64,000 nucleotides of DNA. Origin: an uncultured Hyphomicrobiales bacterium (GTDB lineage Bacteria; Bacteroidota; Ignavibacteria; Kapaibacteriales; Kapaibacteriaceae). Made by a program: the position numbers and the translations under genes. The notes below the pieces were generated by a model. It was given only the letters and a program-made list of their open reading frames with translations. It was not told where the DNA came from and ran no database searches. This document shows, in pieces, positions 986 to 45,599 of this stretch (position 1 is its first letter; every line of letters starts with the position of its first letter). Location: contig CAZUGQ010000003.1 of NCBI GenBank assembly GCA_964620125.1, positions 89,529 through 153,528 of the forward strand, given 5' to 3'.

Positions 986-1084
986 GGGGACCTCGTGAGT
1001 ACGGATTCGGTGGGATCGTACAAAATGGGGGTAAGTGAGGATAATGGCAAGGGATTAGGTGCCGAGAGAGGAGGAATTCCGGTA

Positions 1085-1292
1085 ATGGTACCGGGAGAAG
1101 AGGTGTCCCGGTAAGGGTACCGGGAGAAGAGGTGTCCCGGTAAGGGTACCGGGAGAAAAGGTGTCCCGGTAATAGTACCGGGACAGAAGGTGTCCCGGTA
1201 CCAGAACCAGGAGAAACGGTGTTCCGGAGATGGTACCGGGAGAAAAGGTGTCCCGGTACTGGTACCGGGAGAAGAGATATCCCGGTAAGTTT
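1085..1292. repeat. tandem array of about 7 palindromic 30-bp units (GGTACCGGGAGAAGAGGTGTCCCGGTAAG) in a divergent intergenic region
   Basis: Direct reading: units at ~1087, 1117, 1147, 1177, 1206 (degenerate), 1231, 1260. Each contains the inverted repeat TACCGGGA...TCCCGGTA. The six-frame ORFs here (711..1352-, 836..1114+, 1230+) show mirror 10-aa periodicity, which is an artefact of the repeats. Confidence 0.85.
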
Positions 1293-1319
1293 CCCGCTAT
1301 CATCTTTAATTTCCTTCGC

Positions 1320-2117
1320 ATGACGCAATTGGAGACGCTTGCCAGCGTTCAAGGACGCTCGCTACTGCGCGATATCTATCGCGAACTGCGCTATGAAAGG
1401 CGTCTGGGAACATTCCAGACGCTTGGTACCATGTGGAGAATTTGCACCACTGAACAAGAGCTGATCCGCCGAACGCGGCACGATGTGGTTGTGCTCCACC
1501 CGCTAGGATGGTGGCAAGGTACTACGTTATGGATGCAGGAGGTCATCAACCGATACTACTTTGCTGCCATCAATGCATGGGTGTATGCTGGTGCTGCAAT
1601 ACTGCTTGTTGCGGTTGGACTCAATCGCGTTGGCGCGATCAATCAACCGTCATTCATTGTTGGTGGCATTGTTCTAGAAGCAGTTCTTCTGCTTGCACTC
1701 TTTGCAGTGATGTACTTTACTCCCCCAGATGAACCGGATGTTGCTCCACATTCATCAGCTGCCTCGGAAGGAACCATCGAGTTGCTGCGTGAACTCGGTG
1801 AGATAGGACGTGATTACGCAGCAATGGCTGTTCAGCTGGAAGCTATCTCAAGCGCACTGAACGACATGGTAGAACGACAAGACGCAATTGTTGAGAGCGT
1901 TCGCGAGAGCGTTGACGCAGCAGTCAAGGCTGTGCAACCCAACCCTGACCTCATGGCTTCCATGAAGGTCACTACTGCGTCGCTTGAACGTTTTTCAGAA
2001 AGTGTCGACGCATTAAGTGATCGCTTGCGTGCTATGGAAACACAGGAAGTAGAGCGAATGGTCCGTGCCGAACTTGAGCGTATCCTTTCCCGTAACATCC
2101 TCAACACCAAGGGATGA
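1320..2117 (+). CDS. two-TM membrane protein with long cytoplasmic coiled-coil tail; topology resembles GldL/PorL
   Basis: ORF 1230..2117 trimmed to the first ATG outside the repeat array (alternatives 1431, 1533). Two hydrophobic helices (AWVYAGAAILLVAVGL; FIVGGIVLEAVLLLALFAV). After them comes an acidic, Ala/Glu/Arg-rich predicted coiled coil. Stop overlaps the next gene start (ATGA). Confidence 0.5.
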   Translation: MTQLETLASVQGRSLLRDIYRELRYERRLGTFQTLGTMWRICTTEQELIRRTRHDVVVLHPLGWWQGTTLWMQEVINRYYFAAINAWVYAGAAILLVAVGLNRVGAINQPSFIVGGIVLEAVLLLALFAVMYFTPPDEPDVAPHSSAASEGTIELLRELGEIGRDYAAMAVQLEAISSALNDMVERQDAIVESVRESVDAAVKAVQPNPDLMASMKVTTASLERFSESVDALSDRLRAMETQEVERMVRAELERILSRNILNTKG

Positions 2118-3577
2118 TTGCACGTCCACGTCGCAGGCGCATCGAGGTCTACTTTATTCTATACCTTGTTGCCCTCGTACTTCTGCTCCCCGATAGCCCA
2201 CAGCGCACCACCAGCGTTGCAACGGTTCCTACCGATCTGAGCCTGGACCTGCAGCCTGAGCGAGTACGACTCGAATGCCAGCTTATAAGGGATTCCGCAG
2301 GGGGCTTGAGGCTGCGTAACCTTGATAGTGTGAACGTGATTCGGTACAGTGGTGATGTTGAGAACATACAGGTTGTGGCCAGAATCGAAGATGTTCTCAC
2401 TGGTCAGATTCTTACTCTCGAACCAGGCAATTCCGCTACGTCGCTGTTCCAGCTTGTACCTCAACCAGATCGGCAAGCTGTCCTGTTTCGCTGGAGTCCT
2501 GATCTGACCGGTGGAATGCCGCGCACCCTTCGTGTTACCGTGACTGGTACAGCGATGCCTCCAGCTACTGGAGGACCGAATGCGTCGGATGCTGACCTTT
2601 TGCCGCAAGGCCTGCGGATCAGTGGGTCAACGCAGTTTGTCCTTGCCACGACGATCGTTGACGAATCCGGAGCCCCCTCCCGTCCATACCAGCTATTCGT
2701 GGATACACTGCGAGTAATTGAGCGAGATGGACGCAGCCTTGGAAATTTCTGGGTTGTTGCTTCTAAAGATGTTGTTAGTGCAGCACCGCTCCAACCGTGG
2801 AGTGTGCGCCTGAGCATGGGCGGAGCAGACCCATTACGGGATCTTGACGGTATGCCTCAGGTGAGAACAACCGTGCCTGGTGTGGATATTGAGAGATTCT
2901 TAGACACAGCAGCACGAAGTGTTGTGCTTCGTGGGCGTGCACCGCGCACGGGTTCGTACGTTGTCATGGTGAATGCCCGACGACGGGATGGGGAGGTAGC
3001 AGAAGCTTCCTTTGTTGTGCAAAGCATATCGTTGCCAGCCGTTAATGTTCCAGACGTGATGTATCCAGGTGTTGAGTACAGTTTTGATGCGCACGTGCCT
3101 GACGTGGCCAGTGCTCAAGCTCTCATCATGAACGGCAATGTTGAGGTAGCGAGTACGCGTTCAGGAAAGTTGACGTGGATGCCACGGCCCTCGGACACGG
3201 GGAAGGTGTACTACTTTGTGCGACACATTGATGGGCAACAGACCGAGGCACCGCGGCCCATCTCAATCCGGAGCTTTCCTCCACCGGAGATAAGGGATGT
3301 GAAGGACATTGGCTCGGGCGACAAGAAGAAGGTTGTTGTTAAGTTCTTTGGCGATCGAAATCAGGATCGACCAATTCTTGAAGTTTTAGAGGGAAACGCG
3401 CGCACTCCACGCAAGCTATTTGGCAATCAACACGCTGCTAACCCGAATGAATCACCGAAGGTGTCTTGGATAGAAGAGTTCGAGATTAGCCGCAGGGATC
3501 CGAGCAAACCGTTTGTGTTTGTTATTCAAGCGCGCGATCCAAGAGGCAGGGTATCGGGAATCTGGGTTGAGAAATGA
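2114..3577 (+). CDS. bitopic membrane protein (N-terminal signal anchor, large periplasmic portion); possible GldM/PorM-like partner
   Basis: 487-aa ORF. The N-terminus RPRRRRIEVYFILYLVALVLLL is a basic stretch followed by a single TM. The rest is hydrophilic and beta-rich. It is translationally coupled to the upstream two-TM protein. Confidence 0.5.
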   Translation: MIARPRRRRIEVYFILYLVALVLLLPDSPQRTTSVATVPTDLSLDLQPERVRLECQLIRDSAGGLRLRNLDSVNVIRYSGDVENIQVVARIEDVLTGQILTLEPGNSATSLFQLVPQPDRQAVLFRWSPDLTGGMPRTLRVTVTGTAMPPATGGPNASDADLLPQGLRISGSTQFVLATTIVDESGAPSRPYQLFVDTLRVIERDGRSLGNFWVVASKDVVSAAPLQPWSVRLSMGGADPLRDLDGMPQVRTTVPGVDIERFLDTAARSVVLRGRAPRTGSYVVMVNARRRDGEVAEASFVVQSISLPAVNVPDVMYPGVEYSFDAHVPDVASAQALIMNGNVEVASTRSGKLTWMPRPSDTGKVYYFVRHIDGQQTEAPRPISIRSFPPPEIRDVKDIGSGDKKKVVVKFFGDRNQDRPILEVLEGNARTPRKLFGNQHAANPNESPKVSWIEEFEISRRDPSKPFVFVIQARDPRGRVSGIWVEK

Positions 3578-3582
3578 CGAAA

Positions 3583-3609
3583 GTACCGGGACATCTACTC
3601 TCCCGGTAC
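3583..3609. repeat. single palindromic unit GTACCGGGACATCTACTCTCCCGGTAC (same family as 1085-1292)
   Basis: Perfect 8-bp arms TACCGGGA/TCCCGGTA around a 9-nt loop. It lies between convergent genes (2114..3577+ and mltG-) and is probably a bidirectional terminator/REP-like element. Confidence 0.7.
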
Positions 3610-3621
3610 GTCTCCGCTACC

Positions 3622-4593
3622 TCAGCCCCCTGCCCTCGCCGCACGATACCGCGCCACATTCCTTACATGCTCCGCATACGTCTTCGCAAACCAATGCTTG
3701 CCGCTGCCGTCACCCCGTGCAACGAAAAAAAAGTATGCATGCTCCTCCGGATCTTGTGCAGCTCGAATTGCTCGTAACCCCGGATTGCAGATCGGCGTGG
3801 GCGGCAGTCCCACGTGCACATACGTATTCCACTCATGGCCCACAGCCAGATGCTCATACAGTACTCTTTCGCGTTTGCCAAGGCCATACTGCACCGTTGG
3901 GTCCGACTCCAGCCTCATCCCACGTTTCAGCCGATTCATGTAAACTCCTGCAATCCTCGGCATCTCGGCTTCATCGGCAGCCTCCGCCTGCACGATCGAA
4001 GCAAGGATTAACTGATCATTCGTGGGCTCACTGTCGGCAACCTGCCGCTCGTATTCTCGAACAAGTCGTTCAGCTACTGCTTCAGCCCCTTCACGCCAAA
4101 AGAACTCGTACGTGTTTGGAAATAGTCGGCCCTCAAGGCTATCAAACGCCGATGCCAACGATGCCGTGTCAGTATCGAGCTTCTGCCCAAGCAACAGCGC
4201 GGTTTCGTGTGCCGTTAGGCCCTCGGGTATGGTTACCTGCACCGTGGGCCTGCGCCGACCGGTAAACAAGGCCTCCAGTACATCGAACTGCTCGTCACCC
4301 TGATGAAATACATACCACCCACTATGGATCGTTGTTAGGGGGCTTAGGCGCATGGTTACTCTTGCGGCGAGCTTTACCAACCATGGCGTAGGCATCGGGC
4401 ATTGCGCGTCTATGCTGTCAATAGCAGCAACCACACTGGTGTTTCGCGGAATGAAAACCATGCCGTTCTCACCAGCATTGATTTCCATCGAGAGTACCCA
4501 CCACGCCAATCCGGCGACCATCACACAGAATCCCAGGATCAGGGATCCGGTTAGGATTGCTGTCTGCCGTACGGACCGTCGTCGTCTACTCAT
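3622..4593 (-). CDS. mltG: endolytic murein transglycosylase MltG (YceG family)
   Basis: ORF 3622..4647 with the start placed at MSRRRRSVRQTAILTGSLILGFCVMVAGLAWWVL (signal anchor). YceG hallmarks are present: IPEGLT, LESDPTVQYGLG, NTYVHVGLPPTPICNPG. Confidence 0.8.
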   Translation of the reverse strand: MSRRRRSVRQTAILTGSLILGFCVMVAGLAWWVLSMEINAGENGMVFIPRNTSVVAAIDSIDAQCPMPTPWLVKLAARVTMRLSPLTTIHSGWYVFHQGDEQFDVLEALFTGRRRPTVQVTIPEGLTAHETALLLGQKLDTDTASLASAFDSLEGRLFPNTYEFFWREGAEAVAERLVREYERQVADSEPTNDQLILASIVQAEAADEAEMPRIAGVYMNRLKRGMRLESDPTVQYGLGKRERVLYEHLAVGHEWNTYVHVGLPPTPICNPGLRAIRAAQDPEEHAYFFFVARGDGSGKHWFAKTYAEHVRNVARYRAARAGG

Positions 4594-4674
4594 GAGCAAA
4601 AATCGGCTGGACGGATGGTAACGTCTTCTACAACAAACAGAACGCACTTGTTTACTCGTGCCGAATGTATCACA

Positions 4675-4694
4675 AAACGCTTTCAGCGTTTTTG
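4675..4694. terminator. bidirectional rho-independent-type hairpin AAAACGCTTTCAGCGTTTTT
   Basis: 8-bp stem AAAACGCT/AGCGTTTT with A/T runs on both sides. It is located 3' of the minus-strand ABC ATPase gene and 5' of mltG. Confidence 0.45.
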
Positions 4695-4797
4695 CACCTA
4701 TCGTAAATGATAGTCCTTGACCAGCGCTAACTGTTCCGTCGATCCTATCGTACGCAAAGGGCGTTTGCTTTTTGGTACTGAGGATGCTTCAACTGTG

Positions 4798-5688
4798 TCA
4801 TGCTCCTACACTCTTCACGAAGATGTCGTGCAGGCTCGGCTCGGCAAGCTCGAATCTGGTGATGTGCACTCGGTCAATGAACAGTCGTAAAAGGGCATCT
4901 GATGTAAGCGAAGGGTCGGTGATGCGAAGCTCAACCCTGCCTACCGTGGAGCTCACTACCTCGGTACCGGGAACCTCACGCACGGCATCGTCGTTGCCAT
5001 CGTACCTGATGATGACGCGATCACTACGATACTCAGCCTTGATGCTTCGAACGCTCCCATGCAAAATCACTTCGCCGCGGTTGATCAATGCAATGTCATC
5101 ACAGAGCTTTTCTACCTGATCCATCTGGTGTGTTGACAGGAGTACGGTTGTCTGCTCATTCCGAAGTTCCTTCACCGTATCTATCAACAGCTGAGCATTC
5201 ACGGGGTCAAGCCCACTGAATGGCTCGTCAAGGATTACCAGCCTTGGGCCATGCAACAGAGTGCTGATGAACTGCACCTTCTGCTGCATACCTTTCGAAA
5301 GCTCTTCAATCTTCTTACGCTCCCAACCACTAGCATCAAGCTTCTCAAGCCAGAACGCCACTCGTTGTTTTGCTTCGTGCTGCGCAAGGCCTTTCAGGCG
5401 AGCGAAGTACTCGAGCTGCTCGGCAACAGTGAGTTTTTTGTACAGGCCGCGTTCCTCAGGCAAATAGCCGATTCTCTCCTGCGCAAGCTCATGCACAGGT
5501 TCACCATCTAATAAAATTTCACCACTATCTGGTTGAGTGATGTTGGTGATCATCCGTATTAGCGTAGTCTTGCCGGCACCGTTGGGGCCGAGCAATCCAA
5601 AGATTCTACCGGGAACGGCTCGCATGCTTATTGCGTTATTAGCCACATGGTTGCCGTAGCGCTTCACCACATTTCGGACTTCAAGCAT
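4798..5688 (-). CDS. ABC transporter ATP-binding protein (ABC-2/NatA-GldA-like)
   Basis: Walker A GPNGAGKTT, Q-loop, signature LSKGMQQKV, Walker B LVILDEP, H-loop STHQ, plus a C-terminal regulatory extension. No permease gene is adjacent. Confidence 0.85.
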   Translation of the reverse strand: MLEVRNVVKRYGNHVANNAISMRAVPGRIFGLLGPNGAGKTTLIRMITNITQPDSGEILLDGEPVHELAQERIGYLPEERGLYKKLTVAEQLEYFARLKGLAQHEAKQRVAFWLEKLDASGWERKKIEELSKGMQQKVQFISTLLHGPRLVILDEPFSGLDPVNAQLLIDTVKELRNEQTTVLLSTHQMDQVEKLCDDIALINRGEVILHGSVRSIKAEYRSDRVIIRYDGNDDAVREVPGTEVVSSTVGRVELRITDPSLTSDALLRLFIDRVHITRFELAEPSLHDIFVKSVGA

Positions 5689-5863
5689 GTGGCAAGATAG
5701 CAGTTCTTTACAGCTTGATGAGAGGCTAGCGAATTACCAGACCATTGTGCATCGTCGTGGGGCCATGTGGTGTCATGACTCTTCACAATCGTCATGCTTA
5801 AAACGCCAACCTCGAAGCGTGAATACGTAACTTTGGCCGGGCGAAACATGAGGAACACAATCA

Positions 5864-6547
5864 ATGCGGTCATTTAGCGCGGTCTGGAATAGCACCATCA
5901 TGCAGAAATGGGTGATGGCGGTAACGGGCATCGGTTTGGTACTGTTTCTGCTTGGCCACTTAAGTGGCAATCTGCTGGTATTCCTCGGGCCAGATCACAT
6001 GAATTCCTATGCTGTAGAACTCCGTGAGATGCTTCACGGAGCGGCGATATGGGTTGTGCGTTTGGGTCTGCTGCTGTTTTTCCTCCTTCACATTTGGTCG
6101 GGCATCAAACTCGCCCGCCTTAATCGCACAGCAAAGGGGGAGGGGTACGAGCGTGCAGATTATCGAGCATCGACTCTGGCTTCGCGTACGATGATGTATT
6201 CAGGCCTGCTCATCCTTGTGTATGTGATCTACCACCTGGCTCACTTCACATGGGGTATCGTGCATCATGAGTTCTATCATTTCACGGATAAAATGGGTCG
6301 GCACGACGTGTACAGGATGGTTGTGGAGAGCTTCCATCAGCCACTGATCAGCGTTTTCTACGTGGTTGCGATGATCGTAACCGGTTTCCACCTTAACCAC
6401 GCCATCAGCAGTGCCTTCCAAACATTAGGCATCAATCACCCGCGATATACACCCCTGATTCGCATCATCGGCCCCGTGCTCGGTGCCGTGATTGTTCTGG
6501 GATTCCTGTCTGTGCCAATTGCCATCATGACTGGAATCGTGAAATAA
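5864..6547 (+). CDS. sdhC: succinate dehydrogenase/fumarate reductase cytochrome b subunit (b558 family)
   Basis: 227-aa polytopic protein with conserved His-bearing helices ([24 protein letters not shown]). It sits immediately upstream of sdhA/sdhB. Confidence 0.8.
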
Positions 6548-6563
6548 GGGGCTTGAGCAGACT

Positions 6564-8480
6564 ATGAACCTTAATAGTAAGATTCCGTCAGGCCCACTTG
6601 AACAGAAGTGGGACAAACACAAGTCCGAACTCAAGCTGGTAAATCCGGCCAACAAACGGAAGTTTTCCGTGATCGTGGTCGGCACCGGTCTTGCTGGTGC
6701 TTCAGCAGCAGCATCTCTTGCGGAACTGGGGTACAACGTGACCGCCATTACGTACCACGATTCTCCTCGGCGGGCACATAGTATTGCTGCTCAAGGTGGA
6801 ATCAATGCTGCGAAGAACTACCAGAATGATGGCGACAGCATCTGGAGGCTTTTCTATGACACCATCAAGGGGGGGGACTTTAGGGCTCGTGAAGGGAACG
6901 TCTACCGCTTGGCTCAGGTGTCAGTCAACATTATTGACCAGTGTGTGGCGCAGGGTGTTCCTTTTGCTCGTGACTATGGTGGATACTTGGATAATCGCTC
7001 CTTTGGTGGTGCACAGGTTAGTCGGACATTCTATGCTCGTGGACAAACGGGACAGCAGCTGCTTCTGGGTGCGTATCAAGCACTCTCCCGTCAGATTGGC
7101 CTCGGCAGGGTGCGGATGCTCAACCGTCGGGAGATGATGGATCTTGTGGTAATCAACGAGCGTGCTCGTGGCGTTGTTACTCGCGACCTTACAACAGGCC
7201 GAATTGAAACCGTGCTTGCAGATGCTGTTTTGCTCTGCACAGGAGGTTATGGCAATGTCTTCTACTTGAGCACAAATGCCAAGAATTGCAATGTGACGGC
7301 TGCCTTCCGGGCATATAAACGAGGCGCTGTCTTCGGCAATCCTTGTTACACGCAGATTCACCCCACGTGTATTCCTGTGAGCGGCGACTATCAGAGTAAA
7401 CTCACGCTGATGAGCGAATCGCTGCGGAACGATGGACGGATCTGGGTGCCAAAAAAGCAAGGAGACACTCGCAAGCCCTCCGACATACCCGAGAGTGAAC
7501 GAGACTACTACCTGGAACGTAAGTACCCAAGTTTTGGCAACCTCTCACCAAGAGATATCGCATCGCGTGCGGCGAAGGAAGCATGCGATGATGGGCGCGG
7601 CGTTGGCCCGGGCGGTCGGGGTGTATACCTCGATTTTGCTGACGCCATTGCTCGCTTGGGCAGAAAGGTTATCGAGGACCGCTATGGCAACCTGTTCGAG
7701 ATGTACGAACGCATTACTGGTGAGGATCCGTACTCCGTGCCAATGCGTATCTACCCTGCCGTTCACTATACAATGGGCGGTCTGTGGGTTGACTACAACC
7801 TGATGAGTAATATCCCTGGTCTATTCGTTCTTGGCGAAGCAAACTTTTCGGACCATGGTGCAAACCGCCTTGGTGCAAGTGCTCTGATGCAGGGCCTGGC
7901 TGATGGATACTTCGTGATTCCCTACACCCTTGGAGGGTACTTCGGTGAGGTAGGCCCAAGCCCCCTGCCATCATCTGATGCGCCTGAAGTGCGGCAGGCT
8001 GAACAGGCTGCAGCAGACAAAGTGAACAGACTGCTATCCATTAATGGCAAGCGCACACCAACAAGCTTTCACCGTGAGTTGGGTAAAATCATGTGGGACA
8101 AGTGCGGCATGGCCAGAAATGAAAGGGGGCTACGGCAGGCGCTGCAAGAAATACCGGCGTTGCGTGAAGAGTTCTGGCAAAATCTGCATGTGCCGGGAAG
8201 TGGCGCAGAGCTCAATCAATCACTTGAGTTGGCATCGCGTGTGGCTGATTTCATGGAGTTCGGTGAGCTAATGGTCCGCGATGCTCTCCATCGCAACGAG
8301 AGTTGTGGCGGGCATTTTCGTGAAGAGTACCAAACAGAGGATGGCGAGGCCAAGCGGAACGATGAAGAGTATGCCTACGTTGCGGCGTGGGAATATGCTG
8401 GTGAATCTGCAGAGCCAGTCTTGCACAAGGAGAAGCTGGAATTCGAGAATGTGCATTTGGCAACGAGGAGCTACAAGTGA
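6564..8480 (+). CDS. sdhA: succinate dehydrogenase/fumarate reductase flavoprotein subunit
   Basis: Dinucleotide fold [12 protein letters not shown], covalent-FAD region [12 protein letters not shown], active-site HYTMGG, RLGASAL; 638 aa. Confidence 0.9.
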
Positions 8481-9229
8481 TGAAACTCAGACTACATATT
8501 TGGCGACAGGCAAACGCCGATGATCAAGGGATGCTAAAGACGTACGATCTAGCGAACGTAAGCGAGCATATGAGCTTTTTGGAAATGCTCGATGTGCTCA
8601 ACGAGCAACTGATCGAATCAGGTCAGGATCCCGTGGCGTTCGAACATGATTGTAGAGAAGGTATCTGTGGTAGCTGCAACATGGTTATCAATGGTCGACC
8701 ACACGGTCCAGTTCCGCGCACTACTGCATGCCAGCTACACATGCGCTCGTTTAAGGATGGAGACGAGATATACATTGAACCATGGAGGGCAAAAGCCTTT
8801 CCCGTGATTCGCGACCTGGTGGTTGATCGAAGTGCATTCGACAGAATCATTCAGTCAGGGGGCTTCATCAGTGCAAACACCGGCACAGCCCCCGATGGGA
8901 ACGCCATCCCCGTACCGAAACAGCAGGCAGACCGTTCTATGGATGCTGCAGCATGCATTGGCTGCGGTGCATGTGTAGCTGCATGCCCAAATGCTAGTGC
9001 GATGTTGTTCGTTGCAGCTAAGATTGGGCATCTGGGCACGTTGCCACAGGGCCAGGCAGAGCGCAACGAGCGTGCAGTGAATATGGTCTTGCAGATGGAT
9101 GCGGAAGGCTTTGGTGCATGCACCAACCATTATGAATGTGAGGCAGCGTGCCCTAAGGGTATCAGCGTCGAGTTCATTGCTCAGATGAATCGCGACTTTG
9201 TAGGTGCCTCGTTGTTTGGTCGTGGATAA
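8477..9229 (+). CDS. sdhB: succinate dehydrogenase/fumarate reductase iron-sulfur subunit
   Basis: 2Fe-2S motif [17 protein letters not shown], 4Fe-4[13 protein letters not shown], 3Fe-4[13 protein letters not shown]. Overlaps the sdhA stop. Confidence 0.9.
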
Positions 9230-9231
9230 TC

Positions 9232-9930
9232 GTGGCAACCATTCTCATCATCGAGGATGACCCCGCGATAATCATTGGCTTGCAGGATGCATTGGCCGCA
9301 GAGGGTTTTACTGTGTTGGTTGAGCGTGATGGTGAATCAGGCTTGCGGCAGGCACGAAGGGAACAGGCAGACTGTATATTACTTGACGTGATGCTGCCAT
9401 TTATGAATGGCCGTGATGTGTGTCGCACTCTGCGCGCGGAAGGGATCAACACACCGGTGCTCATGCTCACAAGTAAGACGGATGAAACGGATGTAGTTCT
9501 CGGCCTTGAGGTTGGGGCAGACGACTATGTAACGAAGCCCTTCAGACTGAATGAGCTCATCGCTCGCATTCGAGCGCTACTCCGCAGAAGAACTGCCCTT
9601 GCGAAGCGCGTTGAGGGTAGTACTCGATTTGGCAACGTTGAAGTGGATATCGAGCGAATGGAATTGAGAGTGGCTGGGCAGGCCGTCAAGGTAAGTGTAC
9701 GAGAACTCGAAGTGCTAAACTTCCTGATGAAACACGAGAATGAAGTTGTGACACGGGAAATGCTGCTTGATACCGTCTGGGGCTACAACCATTATCCTTC
9801 AACCAGAACGGTTGACAACTACATTCTGTCTCTCCGTAAAAAGATTGAGCCTGACCCAGCTCATCCAATTCATTTACGCACTGTACACACGGCAAGATAC
9901 CGTTTTACGAAAGAGGAAACGTCATCGTAA
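9232..9930 (+). CDS. OmpR-family response regulator (REC + winged-helix)
   Basis: ILIIEDD...D51-like LLDVMLP...TSKTD...K in the REC domain; C-terminal TVWGYNHYPSTRTVDNYILSLRKKIE wing. GTG start 2 nt after the sdhB stop. Confidence 0.85.
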   Translation: MATILIIEDDPAIIIGLQDALAAEGFTVLVERDGESGLRQARREQADCILLDVMLPFMNGRDVCRTLRAEGINTPVLMLTSKTDETDVVLGLEVGADDYVTKPFRLNELIARIRALLRRRTALAKRVEGSTRFGNVEVDIERMELRVAGQAVKVSVRELEVLNFLMKHENEVVTREMLLDTVWGYNHYPSTRTVDNYILSLRKKIEPDPAHPIHLRTVHTARYRFTKEETSS

Positions 9931-11969: not shown

Positions 11970-12078
11970 CATTATGCAAAGTAGTCGCGATTGTGCGACC
12001 AAGAAACAGCCCGACATTTTTTTGACAATCATGGCGCTCATCAACCTTGACATACGCCAGGCACATACGCTGCCAAGC

Positions 12079-13227
12079 ATGTGGTATAGAAGCGAAGACA
12101 TCTATCGTAACACGATAGAGCGAGCCTTCCCTTCGTCGTGGCAATACGTTGCCGATGTTGTTCCGCAGCACCATCATACGCTGGAACCAGCAACGATCCT
12201 GCCGCAGGCCATTGGTGAACCAATTCTGATCAAGCGTGCCTCTACCCACAAAGGCTCGATTCGTCCACAATCTGATACGGCTGCTGCACCAGCCGATGTC
12301 GGTACTACGAACACCAACGTGGTTTCCATTCTCTCCAACGTGTGCACGCACCGAGGAACAATCTTGGTATCAGAGTCGTGCAGTCCACGTGAAATACGCT
12401 GTCCCTATCATGGCAGGCGGTTCGATCTGCGTGGCAGGTGCATTCACATGCCTGAATTCACCGAAGTTGAGGGCTTTCCGAGTGAGGCAGATCATCTAAG
12501 CCCCCTACCGCACTTCACCATTGGCCCCATGGTGTTTGCGCGCATCGCAGCACCGGAGTCTGCCGGGGAGCAGCGAAATCACGAAGTGGAGCCGCTCCCT
12601 GCCGATGGTTCGTTACAGACGTTTCCTTCTGACCTTACGGACCTGTTGCATCAGTTGAGTCCACATAGTCCTTTGGGTAGGAAGATTGCAGAGTGTGAGT
12701 TACAGCCTAGTGGATCCAGGACTTTTGAGATCAACGCACACTGGGCGCTGTATGTGGAGAATTATCTGGAAGGGTTTCACGTGCCGTTTGTGCATGGTGG
12801 GTTGAATGCGGTACTGGACTACGGTGCCTACGAGACGCAACTGTATCCGGGGGGAGTGTTGCAGGTAGGAATTGGTAAAAGCGGTGAAAGCTGTTTCGAG
12901 GAATTGCCTGGAAACGTTGCAGCCTTATACTACTGGCTATTTCCGAATACCATGATCAATGTGTACCCGTGGGGCATCTCACTCAATGTTGTCGAGCCCG
13001 CAGGCCTCTCACGCACACTGGTTCACTACCGCGTGTATGTTATGGACGAGGCCAAAATCAGGGAGGGGGCTGGTGCGGACCTGGACAGAGTGGAATTGGA
13101 AGATGATGCCATTGTGGAGAGTGTACATCGAGGGATGCGATCGCGTGTTTATGTGCGTGGACGGTATTCAGCTACACGTGAGCAGGGGGTGCATCATTTT
13201 CATCGGATGATTTCGCGGTTTGGCTGA
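12079..13227 (+). CDS. Rieske [2Fe-2S] non-heme iron oxygenase, alpha-subunit-like
   Basis: Rieske CTHRG...(17)...CPYHGRRF. Catalytic domain with ENYLEGFHVPFVHGG and downstream His/Asp ligands. The ORF-track start at 11869 is trimmed to the ATG at 12079 to avoid overlap with the divergent kinase gene. Confidence 0.7.
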   Translation: MWYRSEDIYRNTIERAFPSSWQYVADVVPQHHHTLEPATILPQAIGEPILIKRASTHKGSIRPQSDTAAAPADVGTTNTNVVSILSNVCTHRGTILVSESCSPREIRCPYHGRRFDLRGRCIHMPEFTEVEGFPSEADHLSPLPHFTIGPMVFARIAAPESAGEQRNHEVEPLPADGSLQTFPSDLTDLLHQLSPHSPLGRKIAECELQPSGSRTFEINAHWALYVENYLEGFHVPFVHGGLNAVLDYGAYETQLYPGGVLQVGIGKSGESCFEELPGNVAALYYWLFPNTMINVYPWGISLNVVEPAGLSRTLVHYRVYVMDEAKIREGAGADLDRVELEDDAIVESVHRGMRSRVYVRGRYSATREQGVHHFHRMISRFG

Positions 13228-13233
13228 TTAGCT

Positions 13234-13286
13234 AACCGGGACAATAGCACTCCCGGTACCGGTACCGGGAGTGCTATTGTCCCGGT
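13234..13286. repeat. 53-bp perfect palindrome made of two inverted copies of the TACCGGGA/TCCCGGTA unit
   Basis: AACCGGGACAATAGCACTCCCGGTACC followed directly by its reverse complement GGTACCGGGAGTGCTATTGTCCCGGT. It lies between the convergent Rieske oxygenase and pdxJ genes. The loop sequence TGCTATTG is 1 nt different from the 19.9-kb array units. Confidence 0.85.
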
Positions 13287-13289
13287 CAT

Positions 13290-14000
13290 TCACCGCAACA
13301 CAGCTAAATACTCCCTCACGGCCCGATCCATCCCCACCATCACAGCATGGCCAATCAAAGCATGGCCGATACTTACCTCCTCTATATAGGGTACCTCGAC
13401 TATCCCAGAGAGGTTGTGAAGATTCAAACCGTGCCCGGCCTTCACGATTAAACCGTGCTCCGTTGCAAGTTCGGCGGCTGCATGCAGGCGCGTCAACTCG
13501 GTTGTAATGCTGCCTCGCGTTCGTGCATGGGAAAATGGTCCTGTGTGAAGTTCCACCATGTCGGCCCCGGTACGTGCAGATGCTTCAATTTGCAGTGGCT
13601 CAGGCTCGATGAACAGGCTAACTTCAATACCACGACTCTGGAATGTGTCCACGAGCTCCGACAGCACTTCTTCCTGGTCGGCAACATTCAGTCCACCTTC
13701 CGTAGTAAGCTCCGCACGCTTTTCGGGTACGATGGTTACCATGTCCGGTAGAATTTCTAAGGCGAATGCCACGATCTCAGCATTGGCTGCCATTTCGAGA
13801 TCGAATTTTGTTGTGACCACTTCCCGTAACGCACGGACATCTCGGTCGTTAATATGTCGCCGATCCTCACGAAGATGCGCAACGATGCCATGAGCACCTG
13901 CCACTTCTGCAAGAATTGCGGCATGAACGGGGTCAGGCTCGACCCCACCACGGGCCTCACGCAGTGTAGCCACGTGGTCTATGTTTACCGACAGCTTCAT
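13290..14000 (-). CDS. pdxJ: pyridoxine 5'-phosphate synthase
   Basis: MKLSVNIDHVATLREARGG...PDPV..A, EGGL...H, typical PdxJ TIM-barrel motifs. Start placed at MKLSV within ORF 13290..14018. Confidence 0.85.
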   Translation of the reverse strand: MKLSVNIDHVATLREARGGVEPDPVHAAILAEVAGAHGIVAHLREDRRHINDRDVRALREVVTTKFDLEMAANAEIVAFALEILPDMVTIVPEKRAELTTEGGLNVADQEEVLSELVDTFQSRGIEVSLFIEPEPLQIEASARTGADMVELHTGPFSHARTRGSITTELTRLHAAAELATEHGLIVKAGHGLNLHNLSGIVEVPYIEEVSIGHALIGHAVMVGMDRAVREYLAVLR

Positions 14001-14065
14001 ATCTTTTTGGTTACGCAACGTTACAAAATTGAGCGGGGTTATTCCCGCACTAAGGGAGAGTGAAT

Positions 14066-17000
14066 ATGATCGTTCGGCACAACCTCGTGGCCTTCGGTTT
14101 GTGTATGGTTATGGCACTACCAACTCTTGCGCGTGTAAACACCCGCGTTGGTGGTTTTGTTCAGAATCGTGGGCAGTGGCCGGCAGAAGTACTATTTCTG
14201 CACAGAGCTCAGAATCTGGATACATGGATAACTCGCGATGGAATGGTTATCGACCAGTACAAGCGCGAAGGAAACGTGAGAAAAGGTCACGTCATTCGAC
14301 TTCGGTGGGTAGGCAGCAATGGTCAGAGTAATGCGTTAACGGAACAGCCGCGTTCTACCGTGACCTATATGGCAGGATCCGACCCGAGCCAAACGATTGC
14401 TACTCAGGCCTACACCTCGGTACGCTTCGCGAATGTTTTCGACGGCACTGGCGTTGTGTACTACATGGATGCCTCTGGTCAGCTTCGGTATGACCTTGAT
14501 GTTGCTCCAGGTGCAACAGCGGATCACATCGCATTCGTCATCGAAGGTGATATGGGGCTTATAGTTGATAGCAAGGACGTTCGGTTGCGCACAACAATGG
14601 GCGGTATTGTTATGACCGACCTTTACGCCTACGTATTAGGCCAGAAGGCTACGGCAACACCAGTATCATTTGAAGCCACCTCGAATGGCGTTCGCATTAA
14701 CGTACCTGCTCGGAATCTTGACCAGCCACTGGTGATTGACCCAGTGGTATATGGCACCTACTTGGGTGGCTCTGATGATGATGCTGTTGAAGCCGTGGCA
14801 TACAAGAATGGGAAAGTATACGTCGCAGGAGGAAGCTCAAATGTTTCCTTCCCTGACGACGTAGGTGCCTACAGCAAGGACGTTACTGGCAATACCGATG
14901 GCTTTGTTGCCTGTCTCTCCGCAGACCTTGGTGAAATCATCAGCTTCACGTACATAGGTGGAACGTCCGTTGATCGTATTAGTGCAATTGATGTTGACAA
15001 TAACAGAAAAGTTTGCGTAGCCGGTAATACCGAGAGTAAAGACTTCCCTATCACTGCTGGGGTAGTTGGGCAAACACATAAAGGTCAAATTGATGTTTTC
15101 ATTAGCCGGTTTTCAGAAGATTTGAAGAACCTGGAAATCTCTACCTACCTGGGCGGCAACAGAGACGACCGCGCCCGAGCCGTGAAAGTAGACCAAGTGA
15201 ACGGAGGCATCGTTGTGTGCGGTGGAACCAACAGCAATTCGGGCTTTCCAATTACCCTGGCGCATCAAAGCACCTATGGAGGAGAGTGGGATTGTTTCAT
15301 TGCCAAACTCGCCGCCGGTGGCGGTTCCTTCCTGTACTGTACATACTTCGGAAAGGCAGGCAGTGAACAGTTCACGGCACTTGCTCTCGACGCCGCAGGT
15401 TCGCCGTACGTTACTGGATCAACGACTTCCTCGAACTTCGAAACAGCACCCGTTCCAGGTTGGTTCTCTTCTGGCCGGGTGCCGTACGACCGCACATTTA
15501 ACGGCGGCAATACGGATGCGTTCTTAATCAAGTTTTTCCCAGATGGCTCTCTTTCACGCCGAGATGACGGAACGTTCTCCACATACTTTGGCGGCGCAGC
15601 AGATGAAGAGGGAAGAGGTGTTTACGTTGATGCACTTGGCCGTCCAATCCTGGTTGGGGTTACAACTTCGAGTGGGCTACCTACAGCAGGCAGCACCGTT
15701 TACCCGGAACGGATTGGTAAACAGGACATCTTCATGTGCTTGTTCACGGACGACGGCAAGGCACTTACTGGTTGCACATACTTCGGCGGGACAGGCGATG
15801 ATGACGTTCGCGGCATGGTCTCCGATCTTGCCCAGTCACACGGCCTTATTTGGGGTACCACAAATTCAACGGACTTCCCAACGCTTGGAGCGGGAGCAAG
15901 TGCCGAACGCCTGGGTGCAACGGATGGTTTCATTGCTAGACTCAATCCATATAACCTTGGGTTCAGTACGATTGTTGGTAGTTATGGTGCCGACACCGTT
16001 CGCTCGGTGGCGGAGGATGCAGAAGGAGACTTCTTCCACTTGATAACCGGTACTTCAATCGATCTTCCCACTCACACTGGTGCTCTGGAGCCAGAACCGA
16101 TCGGAGGTACCGATGGCTACATTGGGAAATGGGCAAATGGTACGCTGTCTTTGGTAGCACCAGTCGGCGGTGAAAGCTGGTGTACGGGAAGTAACCGCAC
16201 CATCGCCTGGGGCACGGAAGGCATGAAAGAGACAGATAGATTCCAAGTTCTGCTTTCTTCAGACGCGGGGGCTACCTGGTCAACTGTTGCTTCGGACATT
16301 TCAAGCCTAAGCTACACATGGAAGCCAAGCACAAGCCTTGAGTCGGGATCCAACTACATGATACGAGTTCAAACAACTCGTGGTCACGTTGTTACGAGCG
16401 AGTCATTTACGCTCTCCTCTCCACCAAGTATTACCACACAACCGAAGAATGCTTCTGCTTGTGAAGGTGCTCCGGTAACCCTCAGTGTAGAAGCAACTGG
16501 TGCTAACCTTCGGTATCAATGGCGACGTAACGGCAGTAACATAACAGGTGCAACTTCGGCTCAGTACACAATCCCGGCTGTGAATGCCTCGCAATCTGGA
16601 TCGTATGATTGTATGGTTACGGGTTCATGCTCGCCTGTTGCCACATCTGCAACAGCAAACGTATCGGTGGCTGTAGCCACTGCGATTACCACACAGCCAC
16701 AGAACGTTTCAACACGTGTCGCAAGCCCCTTTACACTTTCCGTTGTTGCCAAAGGTTCAGACCTGACCTATCAATGGTACAAGAACGATGAACCTCTCGC
16801 AAATGGTAAGAGTGCAACCTACTCCGTTGCGAACGCAACCACATCCGACGCCGGCACATACAAGTGTACCGTAACCGGAGGGTGCGGATCAGCGACTTCA
16901 AACCCAGTGACTGTAATCGTTGAGCCTGCGAGTTCAGTTTCGGAAGACGTTACAAGCGGAAACACCACACTCCGAATTCTTGGACCCGTACCAGCTGGTG

Positions 17001-17221
17001 AGCAGCTCGCGTTGATGTTGAATATGAAGCAGGGGGCTCAGGTTTCTGTTCGCTTTGTTTCAGCTAACGGACAAATCTTAACATCCACTGCTCTCGGTCA
17101 TTTGTCCGAGGGACGGCATTCGTTAAATGTGGACGTGCTCTCACTCCCATCCGGTGTGTACGGCCTGGAAGTAGTGGCCGGCGCAGACGTTGTGCGCACC
17201 GTTGTGCAAATAGGCCGATAA
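14066..17221 (+). CDS. large secreted SBBP beta-propeller repeat protein with three Ig-like (I-set) repeats and type-A T9SS C-terminal sorting domain
   Basis: RBS AAGGGAGAG precedes the ATG at 14066. Signal peptide MIVRHNLVAFGLCMVMALPTLA. About 9 blades of the SBBP motif (D.F..K......GG...D.....AVD..GN.YV.G.T.S.DFP). Three repeats of QPKNASACEGAPVTLSV...YQWRRNG...SGSYDC.VTG. C-terminus ...GVYGLEVVAGADVVRTVVQIGR. Confidence 0.8.
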   Translation: MIVRHNLVAFGLCMVMALPTLARVNTRVGGFVQNRGQWPAEVLFLHRAQNLDTWITRDGMVIDQYKREGNVRKGHVIRLRWVGSNGQSNALTEQPRSTVTYMAGSDPSQTIATQAYTSVRFANVFDGTGVVYYMDASGQLRYDLDVAPGATADHIAFVIEGDMGLIVDSKDVRLRTTMGGIVMTDLYAYVLGQKATATPVSFEATSNGVRINVPARNLDQPLVIDPVVYGTYLGGSDDDAVEAVAYKNGKVYVAGGSSNVSFPDDVGAYSKDVTGNTDGFVACLSADLGEIISFTYIGGTSVDRISAIDVDNNRKVCVAGNTESKDFPITAGVVGQTHKGQIDVFISRFSEDLKNLEISTYLGGNRDDRARAVKVDQVNGGIVVCGGTNSNSGFPITLAHQSTYGGEWDCFIAKLAAGGGSFLYCTYFGKAGSEQFTALALDAAGSPYVTGSTTSSNFETAPVPGWFSSGRVPYDRTFNGGNTDAFLIKFFPDGSLSRRDDGTFSTYFGGAADEEGRGVYVDALGRPILVGVTTSSGLPTAGSTVYPERIGKQDIFMCLFTDDGKALTGCTYFGGTGDDDVRGMVSDLAQSHGLIWGTTNSTDFPTLGAGASAERLGATDGFIARLNPYNLGFSTIVGSYGADTVRSVAEDAEGDFFHLITGTSIDLPTHTGALEPEPIGGTDGYIGKWANGTLSLVAPVGGESWCTGSNRTIAWGTEGMKETDRFQVLLSSDAGATWSTVASDISSLSYTWKPSTSLESGSNYMIRVQTTRGHVVTSESFTLSSPPSITTQPKNASACEGAPVTLSVEATGANLRYQWRRNGSNITGATSAQYTIPAVNASQSGSYDCMVTGSCSPVATSATANVSVAVATAITTQPQNVSTRVASPFTLSVVAKGSDLTYQWYKNDEPLANGKSATYSVANATTSDAGTYKCTVTGGCGSATSNPVTVIVEPASSVSEDVTSGNTTLRILGPVPAGEQLALMLNMKQGAQVSVRFVSANGQILTSTALGHLSEGRHSLNVDVLSLPSGVYGLEVVAGADVVRTVVQIGR

Positions 17222-17304
17222 ATGCCAAATAATTGTCCGAAACATCGTTATTGTAGATTCGTGGGTGCGGTCACACTAATGGTGATCGCACCCACAGTCT
17301 TTTC

Positions 17305-19863
17305 ATGAGCAACAAGCACATGTCCATGGTTGTCATTGTCAGCGCACTGCTAGGCGCACTGGTACTGGGTGCTCCCGCATTCTCAGCTGAGGCTGGTGGT
17401 CCACTTGTGTCAGGGATGATACGCTCAGGCGAAGGCAGAGTGGAAATCACCGATGTTAAGGCACTAGCGGACGGAAGAATTGTGATGTGTGGTTGGATGG
17501 AGGTGCCTGTTGCTTGGCCAGCTCCAGGATGGAATCATGAACATGCTGGCGGTTCGGATGGATTCGTGGCTATCGTTTCCAAGAATCTTGAAGAGTTGGA
17601 GGCCTTTACCCTTATCGGTGGTGGATCTGATGATCAACCAACCGCGCTCACCACTGACAGCAAGGGAAACATCTACGTAGTAGGGTGGACCATATCGAAC
17701 AATTTCCCAACATCTGCCAACTCGATCGGTTACCTTTATTCATCTGCCACTGATGGATTCGTAGTTGGATTTACGCCTTTTCTCGACTCACTGCTGTTCG
17801 GTTCCTACATCCGCGGTAATCGTGACGAGTTTCCAACTGATGTTCAGGTGGACGCTGCATCTACCATTTACATCTGCGGTTCAACAAACTCAAATTCCGG
17901 ATTTCCTAATACGAACGGAATATTCAAGACTCCATTTGGTGGCAGAGATGCTTTTGTAATGCGCCTAGGTGCCAATGCCACTTCCGTGTTATTCAGCACG
18001 TACTTCGGCGGCACGGGTGATGACACCTTCAATGGAATGCTGGTTCATACAAACGGAGCAATCTACCTGGCCGGTTCGACAAGTTCTGTAGACTATAAGA
18101 CGTTTCCGGTAATCAATCCATCCACCTGGTGGCAGTACAGCGAACGACCTTATGACTGGACTTTCAACGGAGGAATTACAGACGCAACGCTGGTTATCCT
18201 CTCCGACGATGGAGCACGTGCAATTGCCTCCACATATCTAGGAGGATCTGCGAATGATGCAGCTATGGACGTAGCAGTGATTGATAGCAATATCATATTA
18301 GTTGGCTCAACGCAGTCACCAGATTTTCCTGTTGCGAGCCCAGTCCAGAATCACCTGCGAGGAAGTAGCGACGCGTTTATATCACGCTTCACACAACTCG
18401 GACAGTCTCTGCCCTCGTCTACGTACTACGGTGGGTATGGAGACGAGGTCGGCACATGTGTGCACATCTACCCACCAGGCCAGTATGCAATCGCGGGCGT
18501 TACAACCTCAAGTGATTTCCCGAATGTAGGAATTGGTACAAGTGGTGATCGACAAGGAGCACACGACGGATTTGTGCTTTTCTCGAACATTTCGTCCGCT
18601 AGCTTCGCCACAACACTTGGTGGAACCGACACAGACAGCATGTATGCGATGGCAGTTCAACCAGACCGTGGGGTTGTGGTTGCTGGATGGTCGAGGAGCT
18701 CGGTCATAGAACTCAGTCCATACGCGCTTGAATCCAACCCAATAGGTGTAAGTGCGTGTGCCATAAGAATTCAGCCAGGAAGCGTGAGCCTCATTGATCC
18801 CGTAGGCGACCAGCGTTACTGCGAAGGATCAACAATGCGCGCCACCTGGCTTGGTACTGAAATGCTAACCTCGGATCGTTACACGCTGGAGGCTTCGGCA
18901 GACGGAATCGTCTGGACGGAACTCGTCTCTGACATAAACGCCCAACGTGTCGACTGGGTAGTATCTCCCGTCGTTGAGCTAGGGCAGCGTTACTTCATTC
19001 GGATACGATCGAGTCGCGGACATACAAGTAGAACGGATACTCCATTATGGCTTGACCCAAAGCCAATGATTACGAAAACGCTCCCAGTCGAGGTATCAAT
19101 CTGCCCTGGGGGAAAGACTGTTCTTCGTGGCAACGCTACCGGTGTTGGAATATCGTACCGCTGGCTGGCCTCGGGCTCGGAAATCAGTGGAGAAATTGAA
19201 GATTCACTTGAAGTTGGCCATGGCACGCCGTATGGAGCAGGCGACTATCAGATGCGGTATCGAGCTCTATGTGGAGTAAACGGCATCGTTGGCACAACCA
19301 AGGTTACTGACGGCATACCAACTGAGATTGAGGCACATCCACAGAACGTGGTTGCTAGTATCGGAGGCTCAGCCACCTTTTCAGTACAGGCTACGGGTAG
19401 CAGACTCCAGTATCAGTGGTTTCGAAACAATAGTCTTATCGAAGGGGCTACCCAACGAGCGTATACCGTAGCTTCGGTTTCCTCAGCTTCAGCTGGACAA
19501 TACACGTGCAAAGTGGTTGGCGACTGCGGCGAGGTTACGAGCAGGCCGGGAACCCTTGTAGTATCTGCAACCGGTGTTCATAACAATGAAGGCACTCCGT
19601 TGCGTGTGTTCCCGAATCCAACGAGCGGTACGGTTACAATCTCGCTACGTACATCGGATGGTGCTGTAAGCGAACAATCTTATCCGCGAACACTAACACT
19701 CTTAAACTCCATTGGTCAGGAAGTGCTGAGCCTTCGGATACCCGACGGCCAGGCTGATATCACTTTCGACATAGGTGATTTGTCACCTGGATTATATCTG
19801 ATTTGCCCTGTTTCGCAATCCCGTAATCGAATGATTGACGGACTACAGCTGATAGTCCGGTAG
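17305..19863 (+). CDS. secreted SBBP beta-propeller repeat protein with Ig-like repeat and type-A T9SS C-terminal domain
   Basis: Signal peptide MSNKHMSMVVIVSALLGALVLGAPAFSA. SBBP blades (GNIYVVGWTISNNFP, ...). Ig repeat HPQNVVASIGGSATFSVQATGSRLQYQWFRN. C-terminus FPNPTSGTVTI...GLYLICPV...LQLIVR. Confidence 0.8.
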   Translation: MSNKHMSMVVIVSALLGALVLGAPAFSAEAGGPLVSGMIRSGEGRVEITDVKALADGRIVMCGWMEVPVAWPAPGWNHEHAGGSDGFVAIVSKNLEELEAFTLIGGGSDDQPTALTTDSKGNIYVVGWTISNNFPTSANSIGYLYSSATDGFVVGFTPFLDSLLFGSYIRGNRDEFPTDVQVDAASTIYICGSTNSNSGFPNTNGIFKTPFGGRDAFVMRLGANATSVLFSTYFGGTGDDTFNGMLVHTNGAIYLAGSTSSVDYKTFPVINPSTWWQYSERPYDWTFNGGITDATLVILSDDGARAIASTYLGGSANDAAMDVAVIDSNIILVGSTQSPDFPVASPVQNHLRGSSDAFISRFTQLGQSLPSSTYYGGYGDEVGTCVHIYPPGQYAIAGVTTSSDFPNVGIGTSGDRQGAHDGFVLFSNISSASFATTLGGTDTDSMYAMAVQPDRGVVVAGWSRSSVIELSPYALESNPIGVSACAIRIQPGSVSLIDPVGDQRYCEGSTMRATWLGTEMLTSDRYTLEASADGIVWTELVSDINAQRVDWVVSPVVELGQRYFIRIRSSRGHTSRTDTPLWLDPKPMITKTLPVEVSICPGGKTVLRGNATGVGISYRWLASGSEISGEIEDSLEVGHGTPYGAGDYQMRYRALCGVNGIVGTTKVTDGIPTEIEAHPQNVVASIGGSATFSVQATGSRLQYQWFRNNSLIEGATQRAYTVASVSSASAGQYTCKVVGDCGEVTSRPGTLVVSATGVHNNEGTPLRVFPNPTSGTVTISLRTSDGAVSEQSYPRTLTLLNSIGQEVLSLRIPDGQADITFDIGDLSPGLYLICPVSQSRNRMIDGLQLIVR

Positions 19864-19883
19864 CGCAATTCGAGTTTCCGAAT

Positions 19884-20150
19884 GTTACCGGGAGTGCTCT
19901 TGTCCCGGTACGCAATTAGGCTAAATCGTAGTTACCGGGAGTACTCTTGTCCCGGTACGCAATCATGCTAAATCGTAGTTACCGGGAGTGCTCTTGTCCC
20001 GGTACACAATCGTGCAAGACTGCAGGAACCGGGAGTGCTCTTGTTCCGGTGCGCAAACATGCCAGACCGTAGGTACCGGGAGTGCTCTTGTCCCGGTACG
20101 CAAACATGCCAGACCGTGGGTACCGGGAGTACTCTTGTCCCGGTACACAA
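19884..20150. repeat. tandem array of 6 units (~47-50 bp) each carrying TACCGGGAGTGCTCTTGTCCCGGTA
   Basis: Units at ~19884, 19931, 19978, 20025 (degenerate), 20072, 20121. The inter-palindrome segments are related to one another (GCAATTAGGCTAAATCGTA / GCAAACATGCCAGACCGT), so this is not CRISPR. It lies between the T9SS cargo gene and sufB. Confidence 0.85.
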
Positions 20151-20271
20151 TCATGTACCCCTTCAATCATCCGCAGCAAACAAGCGCCAGCCGTCGGACG
20201 ACGCTGCCACATCTCCAATATAGGACTGATTAAGTCGTATATTGTGCCACATCACAAAGCACGGAGTTGCA

Positions 20272-45340: not shown

Positions 45341-45599
45341 TGATGCCACAATGTTTTCTCAATAAGAGTTGCCGCTCGACTGTTTCCGTGATTCGTAGCA
45401 GGTTCGGCACCTTTGCTGTTGGAGAATCCATCCTAAAGGGTAGCCTACTTGATACAAGTAGCGAAAATTACGGCTGGAAAGCCAATAGGTGTACACTGGA
45501 TCGCGTGCACCCAGCGTACTGCCGGGCAACCACAACGCTGATGATCAACTTCCGAGGGGTTCACGTGGTACGTGATGAGGGAAGTGTGGTGATGGTCAA

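Follow-up and report, generated by a model that had tools for sequence, protein, structure and literature searches.

The 64,000-nucleotide stretch analyzed here (the window; positions 89,529 to 153,528 of contig CAZUGQ010000003.1) carries a family of short palindromic elements that comprises 16-17 units, degenerate copies included, and occupies four intergenic loci, all within positions 1058-20151, as one single unit, one inverted dimer and two direct tandem arrays. A single sequence-defined hairpin is found at four gaps and in three arrangements, lies beside stop codons and is missing from the corresponding gaps of related genomes. With moderate confidence, we interpret it as a lineage-specific family resembling repetitive extragenic palindromic (REP) sequences, whose units would have spread by copying to nearby gaps, multiplied in place through tandem duplication and, where transcribed, would act as RNA hairpins at 3′ ends. 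Judging from its sequence, the host is a Kapabacteria-like member of the Fibrobacteres–Chlorobi–Bacteroidetes (FCB) group. The best matches of the SufB protein encoded in the window show 85-88% identity and come from sources named Candidatus Kapabacteria, Ignavibacteria, Chlorobiota and Bacteroidota; the G+C content is about 52%, and sorting domains of the type IX secretion system (T9SS) are present. The four loci, designated A, S, D and B, are the following.

1058-1289, plus strand: array A, eight head-to-tail 29-bp units, each a 25-bp hairpin and a 4-bp linker, with unit starts at 1058 (degenerate), 1087, 1116, 1145, 1174, 1203 (degenerate), 1232 and 1261.
3582-3610, minus strand: single unit S, core 3584-3608, reading CGTACCGGGAGAGTAGATGTCCCGGTACT on the minus strand.
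13232-13289: inverted dimer D, with D1 on the minus strand (13232-13260) and D2 on the plus strand (13261-13289), whose 5′ ends point toward each other.
19856-20151, plus strand: array B, six head-to-tail 47-bp units, each a 25-bp hairpin and a conserved 22-bp linker, with hairpin starts at 19884, 19931, 19978, 20025 (degenerate), 20072 and 20119.

The motif TACCGGGA-N(5-12)-TCCCGGTA matched the window exactly 12 times, against 0.00 matches expected from 100 dinucleotide-preserving shuffles. When up to 3 mismatches were allowed, 16 matches were obtained against 0.13 expected; they spanned positions 1060-20145, and none fell in 20.2-64 kb. The octamer TACCGGGA by itself occurred 30 times (1.1 expected). 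These counts bear out an initial annotation of this DNA, which had proposed a palindrome family at four intergenic loci. Alignment of 16 units in one orientation, with S and the first half of D read on the minus strand, gave the consensus 5′-GGTACCGGGAG-N6-TGTCCCGGTAC-3′, a unit of 25-29 bp with a stem of 8-9 bp and a loop of 9 nt. The loop length was the same in every copy, and not 7-9 nt as first reported. Nineteen nucleotides (the 8 stem pairs, loop position G1 and loop positions TG8-9) were identical in all four locus consensuses, whereas the central six loop bases were locus-specific. The loop reads GAAGAGGTG or GAAAAGGTG in array A and GTGCTCTTG or GTACTCTTG in array B; the loops have 3 of 9 bases in common between A and B, 4 of 9 between B and S, 6 of 9 between A and S, and 8 of 9 between D and B. 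The most similar pairs are physical neighbors, D and B being 6.6 kb apart and A and S 2.3 kb apart, and the single-base difference noted earlier between the loops at 13.2 and 19.9 kb (GTGCTATTG versus GTGCTCTTG) was recovered.

A covariation test revealed zero compensatory stem changes; departures from the consensus consisted of lost pairing in a few degenerate units and of two G-U cells. This test says nothing for RNA structure beyond the palindrome itself, but the lack of compensatory changes indicates that the arm sequence, and not pairing ability alone, is conserved. Combined with the invariance of the arms, it indicates that the units are copies of one element (or of one recognition target) and not terminators that evolved independently. 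Single units were predicted to fold as RNA with energies of -13 to -16 kcal/mol (z about -3 to -4). Nothing past the 26-29-nt unit was common to the loci, and no other dispersed non-coding repeat family was present in the window.

Tandem Repeats Finder delimited array A as 1079-1288 (period 29, 7.2 copies, 83% matches) and array B as 19857-20151 (period 47, 6.3 copies, 82% matches), which corrects the periods of 30 and about 48 bp given before. Array A is indeed a tandem array, as the initial annotation had it, but holds 6 perfect and 2 degenerate units instead of seven units in all; the six units assigned to array B were all found (5 perfect, 1 degenerate), with an additional partial arm leading the array. 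Because the array units are only about 83% alike, their amplification does not appear to be very recent, and since neither 29 nor 47 is a multiple of three, the arrays encode no peptide repeats. In array A, neighboring arms are able to pair across the 4-nt linker, so that two folding registers exist.

The distance to the stop codon is 6 nt for S, 6 nt for D and 0 nt for B; S and D are located in convergent gaps and A in a divergent one. Unit S lies in a 44-bp gap, 6 nt past the stop of open reading frame (ORF) 2114-3577 and 13 nt ahead of the stop codon of a convergent yceG-family gene (3622-4647), and its predicted RNA fold has an energy of -16 to -21 kcal/mol. Dimer D fills the 62-bp gap between a Rieske oxygenase gene (stop ending at 13227) and pdxJ (stop at 13290-13292). 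Its two inverted copies form a perfect palindrome, as previously described, although of 52 bp (13235-13286) and not 53 bp, with a predicted RNA fold of -49 to -52 kcal/mol (z about -11). Array B opens with the partial arm TCCGGTAG (19856-19863), the TAG of which is the stop codon of a T9SS-cargo gene (17305-19863). From its end, 120 bp remain to the sufB ATG (20271) and about 65 bp to a conserved suf operator/promoter. Array B thus precedes the suf promoter and belongs to the 3′ region of the gene before it, outside the suf leader. Array A occupies most of a 334-bp gap separating two divergent genes.

ATG at 985, minus strand: gene for a DUF7948 secreted protein, which flanks array A and runs off the start of the window.
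ATG at 1320: gene for a membrane protein without a family match, on the other flank of array A.

Another palindrome, AATATAGGACTGATTAAGTCGTATATT (20217-20243), separates array B from sufB, which it precedes by about 30 bp. It is conserved in three relatives (L108, 9948-9975; L111, 248-275; L105, 9965-9991). It resembles an operator of the IscR type (Rrf2 family) that overlaps a -7 box of the Bacteroidetes type (TAnnTTTG), and an Rrf2-family gene is present in the suf operon of relatives.

The window was compared with 9 syntenic loci from five related lineages. The motif was absent from these loci, which also gave no credible covariance-model match, and its absence at orthologous sites points to a gain in the lineage of the window. 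In the closest relative, L114 (66% protein identity in a neighboring gene), the gap orthologous to that of array A measures 136 bp, compared to 334 bp here, and contains no array. A systematic scan for hairpin families with 7-bp stems picked up repeated families in just two cases, the window and a second species (L108 and L115); in the latter, TCCCCGC-N4-GCGGGGA is present in five copies at two loci. The A-orthologous gap of this species holds four copies of that hairpin together with two copies of TCCCTGC-GCAA-GCAGGGA (L115, 4800-5110), and in its B-orthologous gap a palindrome of 26-38 bp, GTGCCGGGGTGTG..CACACCCCGGCAC, occurs twice, along with a single TCCCCGC hairpin.

L108, 9699-9730 and 9784-9933: hairpin repeats in the gap orthologous to that of array B.

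Several short-read contigs of the relatives end exactly at their own repeats. Throughout the clade, the A and B gaps are variable and repeat-prone; the TACCGGGA family itself is confined to the lineage of the window. The arrays also explain the breaks of short-read assemblies of this clade at these gaps.

Additional repeats were seen in the relatives. L114 carries imperfect hairpins of the form C[CG]GGTAC-N5-GTACTCGG at 1778-1797 and 4076-4095, sites orthologous to A and S; they are centered on GTAC, have the words GTAC and CCGG in common with the window element and were missed by the covariance model. L111 contains a 20-bp tandem unit, CCTTGCCCTGAACTAGTGGC, at a contig end upstream of sufB (1-110, the site of array B), L115 contains a 13-bp tandem unit, GATGCAGAAGTAC, downstream of a 485-aa gene (7500-7600), and further tandem repeats occupy orthologous gaps in L109 (1-30) and L116 (1-70).

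Searches were extended to sequence collections. A scan of a genome collection with TACCGGGA-N9-TCCCGGTA returned at least 103 unrelated single chance palindromes and, among the matches listed, no multi-copy locus. The 19-base consensus had one chance match in a metagenome collection, inside a gene of a high-GC contig, and no match in viral contigs, plasmids or phages; Rfam at gathering thresholds and a tRNA scan detected nothing. REP-type repeats are well studied in Proteobacteria and barely documented in the Bacteroidota/Chlorobi/Kapabacteria radiation. In agreement with the earlier remark that such repeats are little described for this group, we found no paper linking Kapabacteria to them.

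REPs are palindromes of 20-40 bp with stems of 5-13 bp, among which Conv-REPs lie less than 20 bp from both stop codons and GTAG REPs supply TAG stop codons (Di Nocera et al. 2013, PMC3733652). The same study describes head-to-head and tail-to-tail dimers, at times merely 1-5 bp apart, clusters of units tandemly repeated together with flanking DNA, and CGTC REPs without a known transposase in Chlorobi and Bacteroidetes. The comparison with REPs and bacterial interspersed mosaic elements (BIMEs), which the initial annotation had drawn, suits the anatomy of the window family: a 25-29-bp palindrome found in single, inverted-dimer and tandem forms, 0-6 nt from stop codons. Like the Enterobacterial elements and the GTAG and CGTC super-families, the window family consists of short stem-loop palindromes within the 20-40-bp range, with an 8-9-bp stem and a species-specific sequence. 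It is extragenic and mostly found at 3′ ends in convergent or co-directional gaps near stop codons, with one locus in a divergent gap. It further shares with them the occurrence of singles, inverted dimers, tandem clusters that include flanking DNA, and sub-families differing in the loop. It differs in lacking a consistent tag, in forming direct head-to-tail clusters, whereas BIMEs alternate in orientation, and in having one array in a divergent gap.

One inverted doublet of REPIN type is present (13235-13286), and this pair folds into one long hairpin as REPINs do (Bertels and Rainey 2011, PMC3116915; PMC5581495). The family is also lineage-specific, as expected of vertically inherited REPIN populations. 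The REPIN-RAYT system is characterized by a single-copy gene for a Y1 HUH enzyme, the REP-associated tyrosine transposase (RAYT, PF01797), flanked by the same hairpins. Unlike in that system, the spacer of dimer D is just 4 bp, most units (14 of 17) are in direct arrays, and no RAYT is encoded among the approximately 37 window proteins scanned. The array-dominated layout at few loci recalls the GTAG-23 REPs of Thermomicrobium roseum, which form large blocks at few loci and are not evenly spread (PMC3733652); those elements belong to another phylum, have another sequence, are GTAG-tagged and are inserted into a small target palindrome. The nearest taxonomic precedent is provided by TnpA_REP subclasses 2.4 and 2.6, for which "atypical secondary structures" were described in Bacteroidetes (Quentin et al. 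2018, PMC6006769). It represents a case of hairpin repeats tied to a Y1 HUH enzyme in the FCB group, but the structures there flank the transposase gene. RAYT-type enzymes are on record for Bacteroidetes (subclasses 2.4 and 2.6, PMC6006769) and for Chlorobia (group 4, PMC5581495). Membership of the GTAG and CGTC super-families was rejected, because the conserved unpaired tetranucleotide at the foot of the stem was not found. In summary, the window family appears to function like REPs and is probably a new REP-like family, outside the GTAG, CGTC and REPIN-RAYT families.

How such a family could have arisen can be outlined as follows. A unit would be copied between nearby gaps by an enzyme that recognizes single-stranded hairpins and is encoded elsewhere (a RAYT or an IS200-type HUH transposase); alternatively, ectopic recombination and gene conversion could do the copying. 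The arrays would then have grown in place by unequal recombination or replication slippage of a hairpin and its adjoining linker, which would explain why the periods differ (29 versus 47 bp) and why array B has a conserved 22-bp linker. Transcription of the upstream genes may extend into S, D and B, whose stem-loops (-13 to -52 kcal/mol) would then form mRNA 3′ ends and could stop read-through or block 3′ exonucleases in the manner of REPs. Array A, between two divergent promoters, is probably untranscribed and would be tolerated, not functional.

Several observations weigh against a REP-like family copied between gaps. Copies were counted in 64 kb, whereas REPs are defined by a high genome-wide copy number (tens to thousands). 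All loci lie in the first 20 kb, and about six gaps of at least 40 bp in the other 44 kb are empty; the comparison of occupied gaps, 4/10 in the first 20 kb and 0/6 in the rest, is not decisive (p about 0.12 by a hand-calculated, Fisher-type test). The lack of copies between 20 and 64 kb is partly due to the scarcity of gaps there, as that region consists mostly of long co-directional operons. A consistent unpaired GTAG or CGTC tag is missing: GTAG precedes only B2, B3 and B5 (3 of 6 units), GCAG and GTGG stand before B4 and B6, CGTC follows only S, and array A and dimer D have neither tag. Direct head-to-tail arrays are a rare arrangement in described REP families, and a divergent gap, which harbors one of the arrays, is the least common REP position. 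No sense-strand T-run follows the hairpins, so they are not canonical intrinsic terminators. Finally, a Pfam scan of approximately 37 window proteins detected no transposase, recombinase or Cas domain, and the called genes of about 120 kb from the relatives included no RAYT or other transposase.

A serious rival, although we consider it rather unlikely, is a purely local, non-mobile family, in which a terminator-type hairpin was copied by segmental duplication or ectopic gene conversion and then multiplied by slippage, with no dedicated enzyme and no genome-wide dispersal. It would account for the confinement of every copy to 20 kb, for the greater loop similarity of neighboring loci (8/9 bases for D and B, 6/9 for A and S) and for the lack of a transposase among the window proteins scanned. 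That hairpin modules can be duplicated locally without giving rise to a dispersed family is illustrated by the convergent gap at 52109-52267, which contains two tandem modules, unrelated to the TACCGGGA family, each composed of a GC-rich hairpin, GAGCCCCGG..CCGGGGC, and, ahead of it, the 16-nt box GTGCGAATTGAGGTCA. Neutral duplicates, however, would diverge evenly, whereas here 19 identical positions stand beside six randomized ones, a pattern that suggests sequence-specific recognition or repeated homogenization of the arms. Segmental duplication would also be expected to carry along more than the 26-29-nt unit common to the loci. Improbable in our view is the reading that a dimeric DNA-binding protein recognizes the half-site TACCGGGA in double-stranded DNA and that the arrays are its binding sites; such a protein could be a regulator, a nucleoid protein or a centromere-like partition protein. 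Invariant arms around a free spacer are the classic signature of a two-half-site operator, and array A occupies a divergent gap, which must contain promoters. The sopC centromere of the F plasmid likewise consists of tandem units of about 40-50 bp, each with a short inverted repeat, which the tandem units of the window recall. Unlike sopC, the window element is chromosomal and has no partition genes in its vicinity; it occupies four loci, among them single copies located between stop codons. The gaps of S (44 bp) and D (62 bp) lie between two stop codons and have no promoter, and array B is upstream of a suf operator/promoter that is conserved in relatives lacking the array. The orthologous promoters of the relatives are devoid of the motif, isolated half-sites are not enriched (4 versus 1.5 expected), and the 17-bp center-to-center spacing would put the half-sites on different faces of the helix.

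The two remaining explanations are far less probable. That the contig was misassembled, with repeats collapsed or misjoined, we consider very unlikely: the source is indeed a contig of an uncultured organism, and contigs of the relatives break at their own repeats, but the units differ from one another (83% matches), degenerate copies occur in order, both flanks carry intact genes, and the single and dimer copies are not tandem. It is scarcely credible that the hairpins are ordinary intrinsic terminators that originated independently at each gene end and are merely alike. Three loci are at gene 3′ ends, and GC-rich hairpins are the norm in the 3′ gaps of this genome; the identity of 19 nt at four loci, with a chance expectation of 0, nevertheless effectively refutes an independent origin. 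The hairpins moreover show neither covariation nor a sense-strand T-run, six to eight tandem copies would be superfluous for termination, and one locus is divergent.

Other classes of elements were tested and rejected. A terminator scan flagged none of S, D and B as intrinsic terminators; in array A it flagged only minus-strand hairpins of the alternative register, and no gene ends there. The first 20 kb contain just one site of canonical intrinsic-terminator appearance, in which a 14-bp stem precedes a T-run; it lies between two T9SS-cargo genes (17261-17295) and contrasts with the repeat hairpins, which have no T-runs. The MITE-like nature (miniature inverted-repeat transposable element) suggested at the outset was abandoned: the unit has arms and a 9-nt loop only, measures just 25-29 bp compared to a MITE body of 50-500 bp, is devoid of terminal inverted repeats around a body, and shows no target-site duplications, the flanks at S and D not being duplicated. 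A CRISPR array (clustered regularly interspaced short palindromic repeats) was dismissed, the linkers being 4 bp (array A) or a conserved 22 bp (array B) and not unique spacers, with no cas domains among the window proteins scanned. The family does not correspond to a transcription-factor operator either, since S and D are located between stop codons, the conserved suf operator has a different sequence and the motif is absent from the relatives. The initial suggestion of a reused binding site was not upheld for a transcription factor, as three of the four loci are at gene 3′ ends and the conserved promoter-proximal motifs of the relatives are other sequences. A DNA uptake sequence or restriction word was discarded because the arm sub-words occur outside the four loci at the order-2 Markov expectation (ACCGGGA, 6 versus 6.4 expected; GGTACC, 23 versus 27 expected).

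The genes bracketed by A and S were considered as element-associated enzymes and rejected; their products are membrane proteins with no sequence match in Pfam, NCBIfam or PDB. This two-gene unit (1320-3577) is conserved across Kapabacteria-like genomes, with at least 62 homologues at E ≤ 1e-10. The 487-aa product of ORF 2114-3577 was modeled as a chain of immunoglobulin-like beta-sandwich domains preceded by an N-terminal membrane helix (mean predicted local distance difference test score 84.6), and the 265-aa product, judged by eye from its translated sequence, apparently has two hydrophobic segments and a coiled-coil-like tail. A GldL/GldM-like identity of the unit found no support and was dropped.

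The comparison hints that, in sister lineages, different hairpin families refill the same gaps. More generally, Kapabacteria might possess hairpin-repeat systems that are specific to a lineage, turn over fast and colonize the same intergenic sites time and again. This idea, which we regard as doubtful, is prompted by two orthologous gaps, one preceding the conserved two-gene membrane-protein unit and the other preceding the suf operon, in which the window genome and a related species hold unrelated hairpin families. The locus offers a new family with a defined consensus, invariant arms versus free loops, and direct arrays of two periods. If a cognate enzyme exists in the full genome, it would constitute a compact system for the recognition, copying and amplification of hairpins outside Proteobacteria. 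If the copying agent is not a RAYT and recognizes the invariant 19-nt arms with any loop while producing direct arrays, it would represent a new way in which REP-like DNA is made and spread.

Further features of the window were noted. An 8-bp tandem repeat, AATGTGGG/AATATGGG, is present in about 10-12 copies at 45574-45701, at the start of ORF 45657-47807; as 8 bp is not a multiple of three, the repeat could shift the reading frame or the start site of this ORF. Between sdhB and the Rieske oxygenase gene, positions 9232-12101 encode an OmpR-type response regulator, a histidine kinase and a 413-aa protein without a family match. None of the three is found at the equivalent place in L105 and L108, which are syntenic relatives; the regulator and kinase genes are convergent, and their ORFs have an overlap of about 60 bp. 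A long co-directional cluster at 30029-52108 encodes very large proteins with almost no family matches, the sole ones being Phage_depo_C beta-sandwich domains in two proteins and an antifreeze-type beta-roll in one, and a 624-bp internal repeat occurs three times at 31712-33259. In the relatives, a PTL_trimer-domain protein is encoded at the position matching this cluster.

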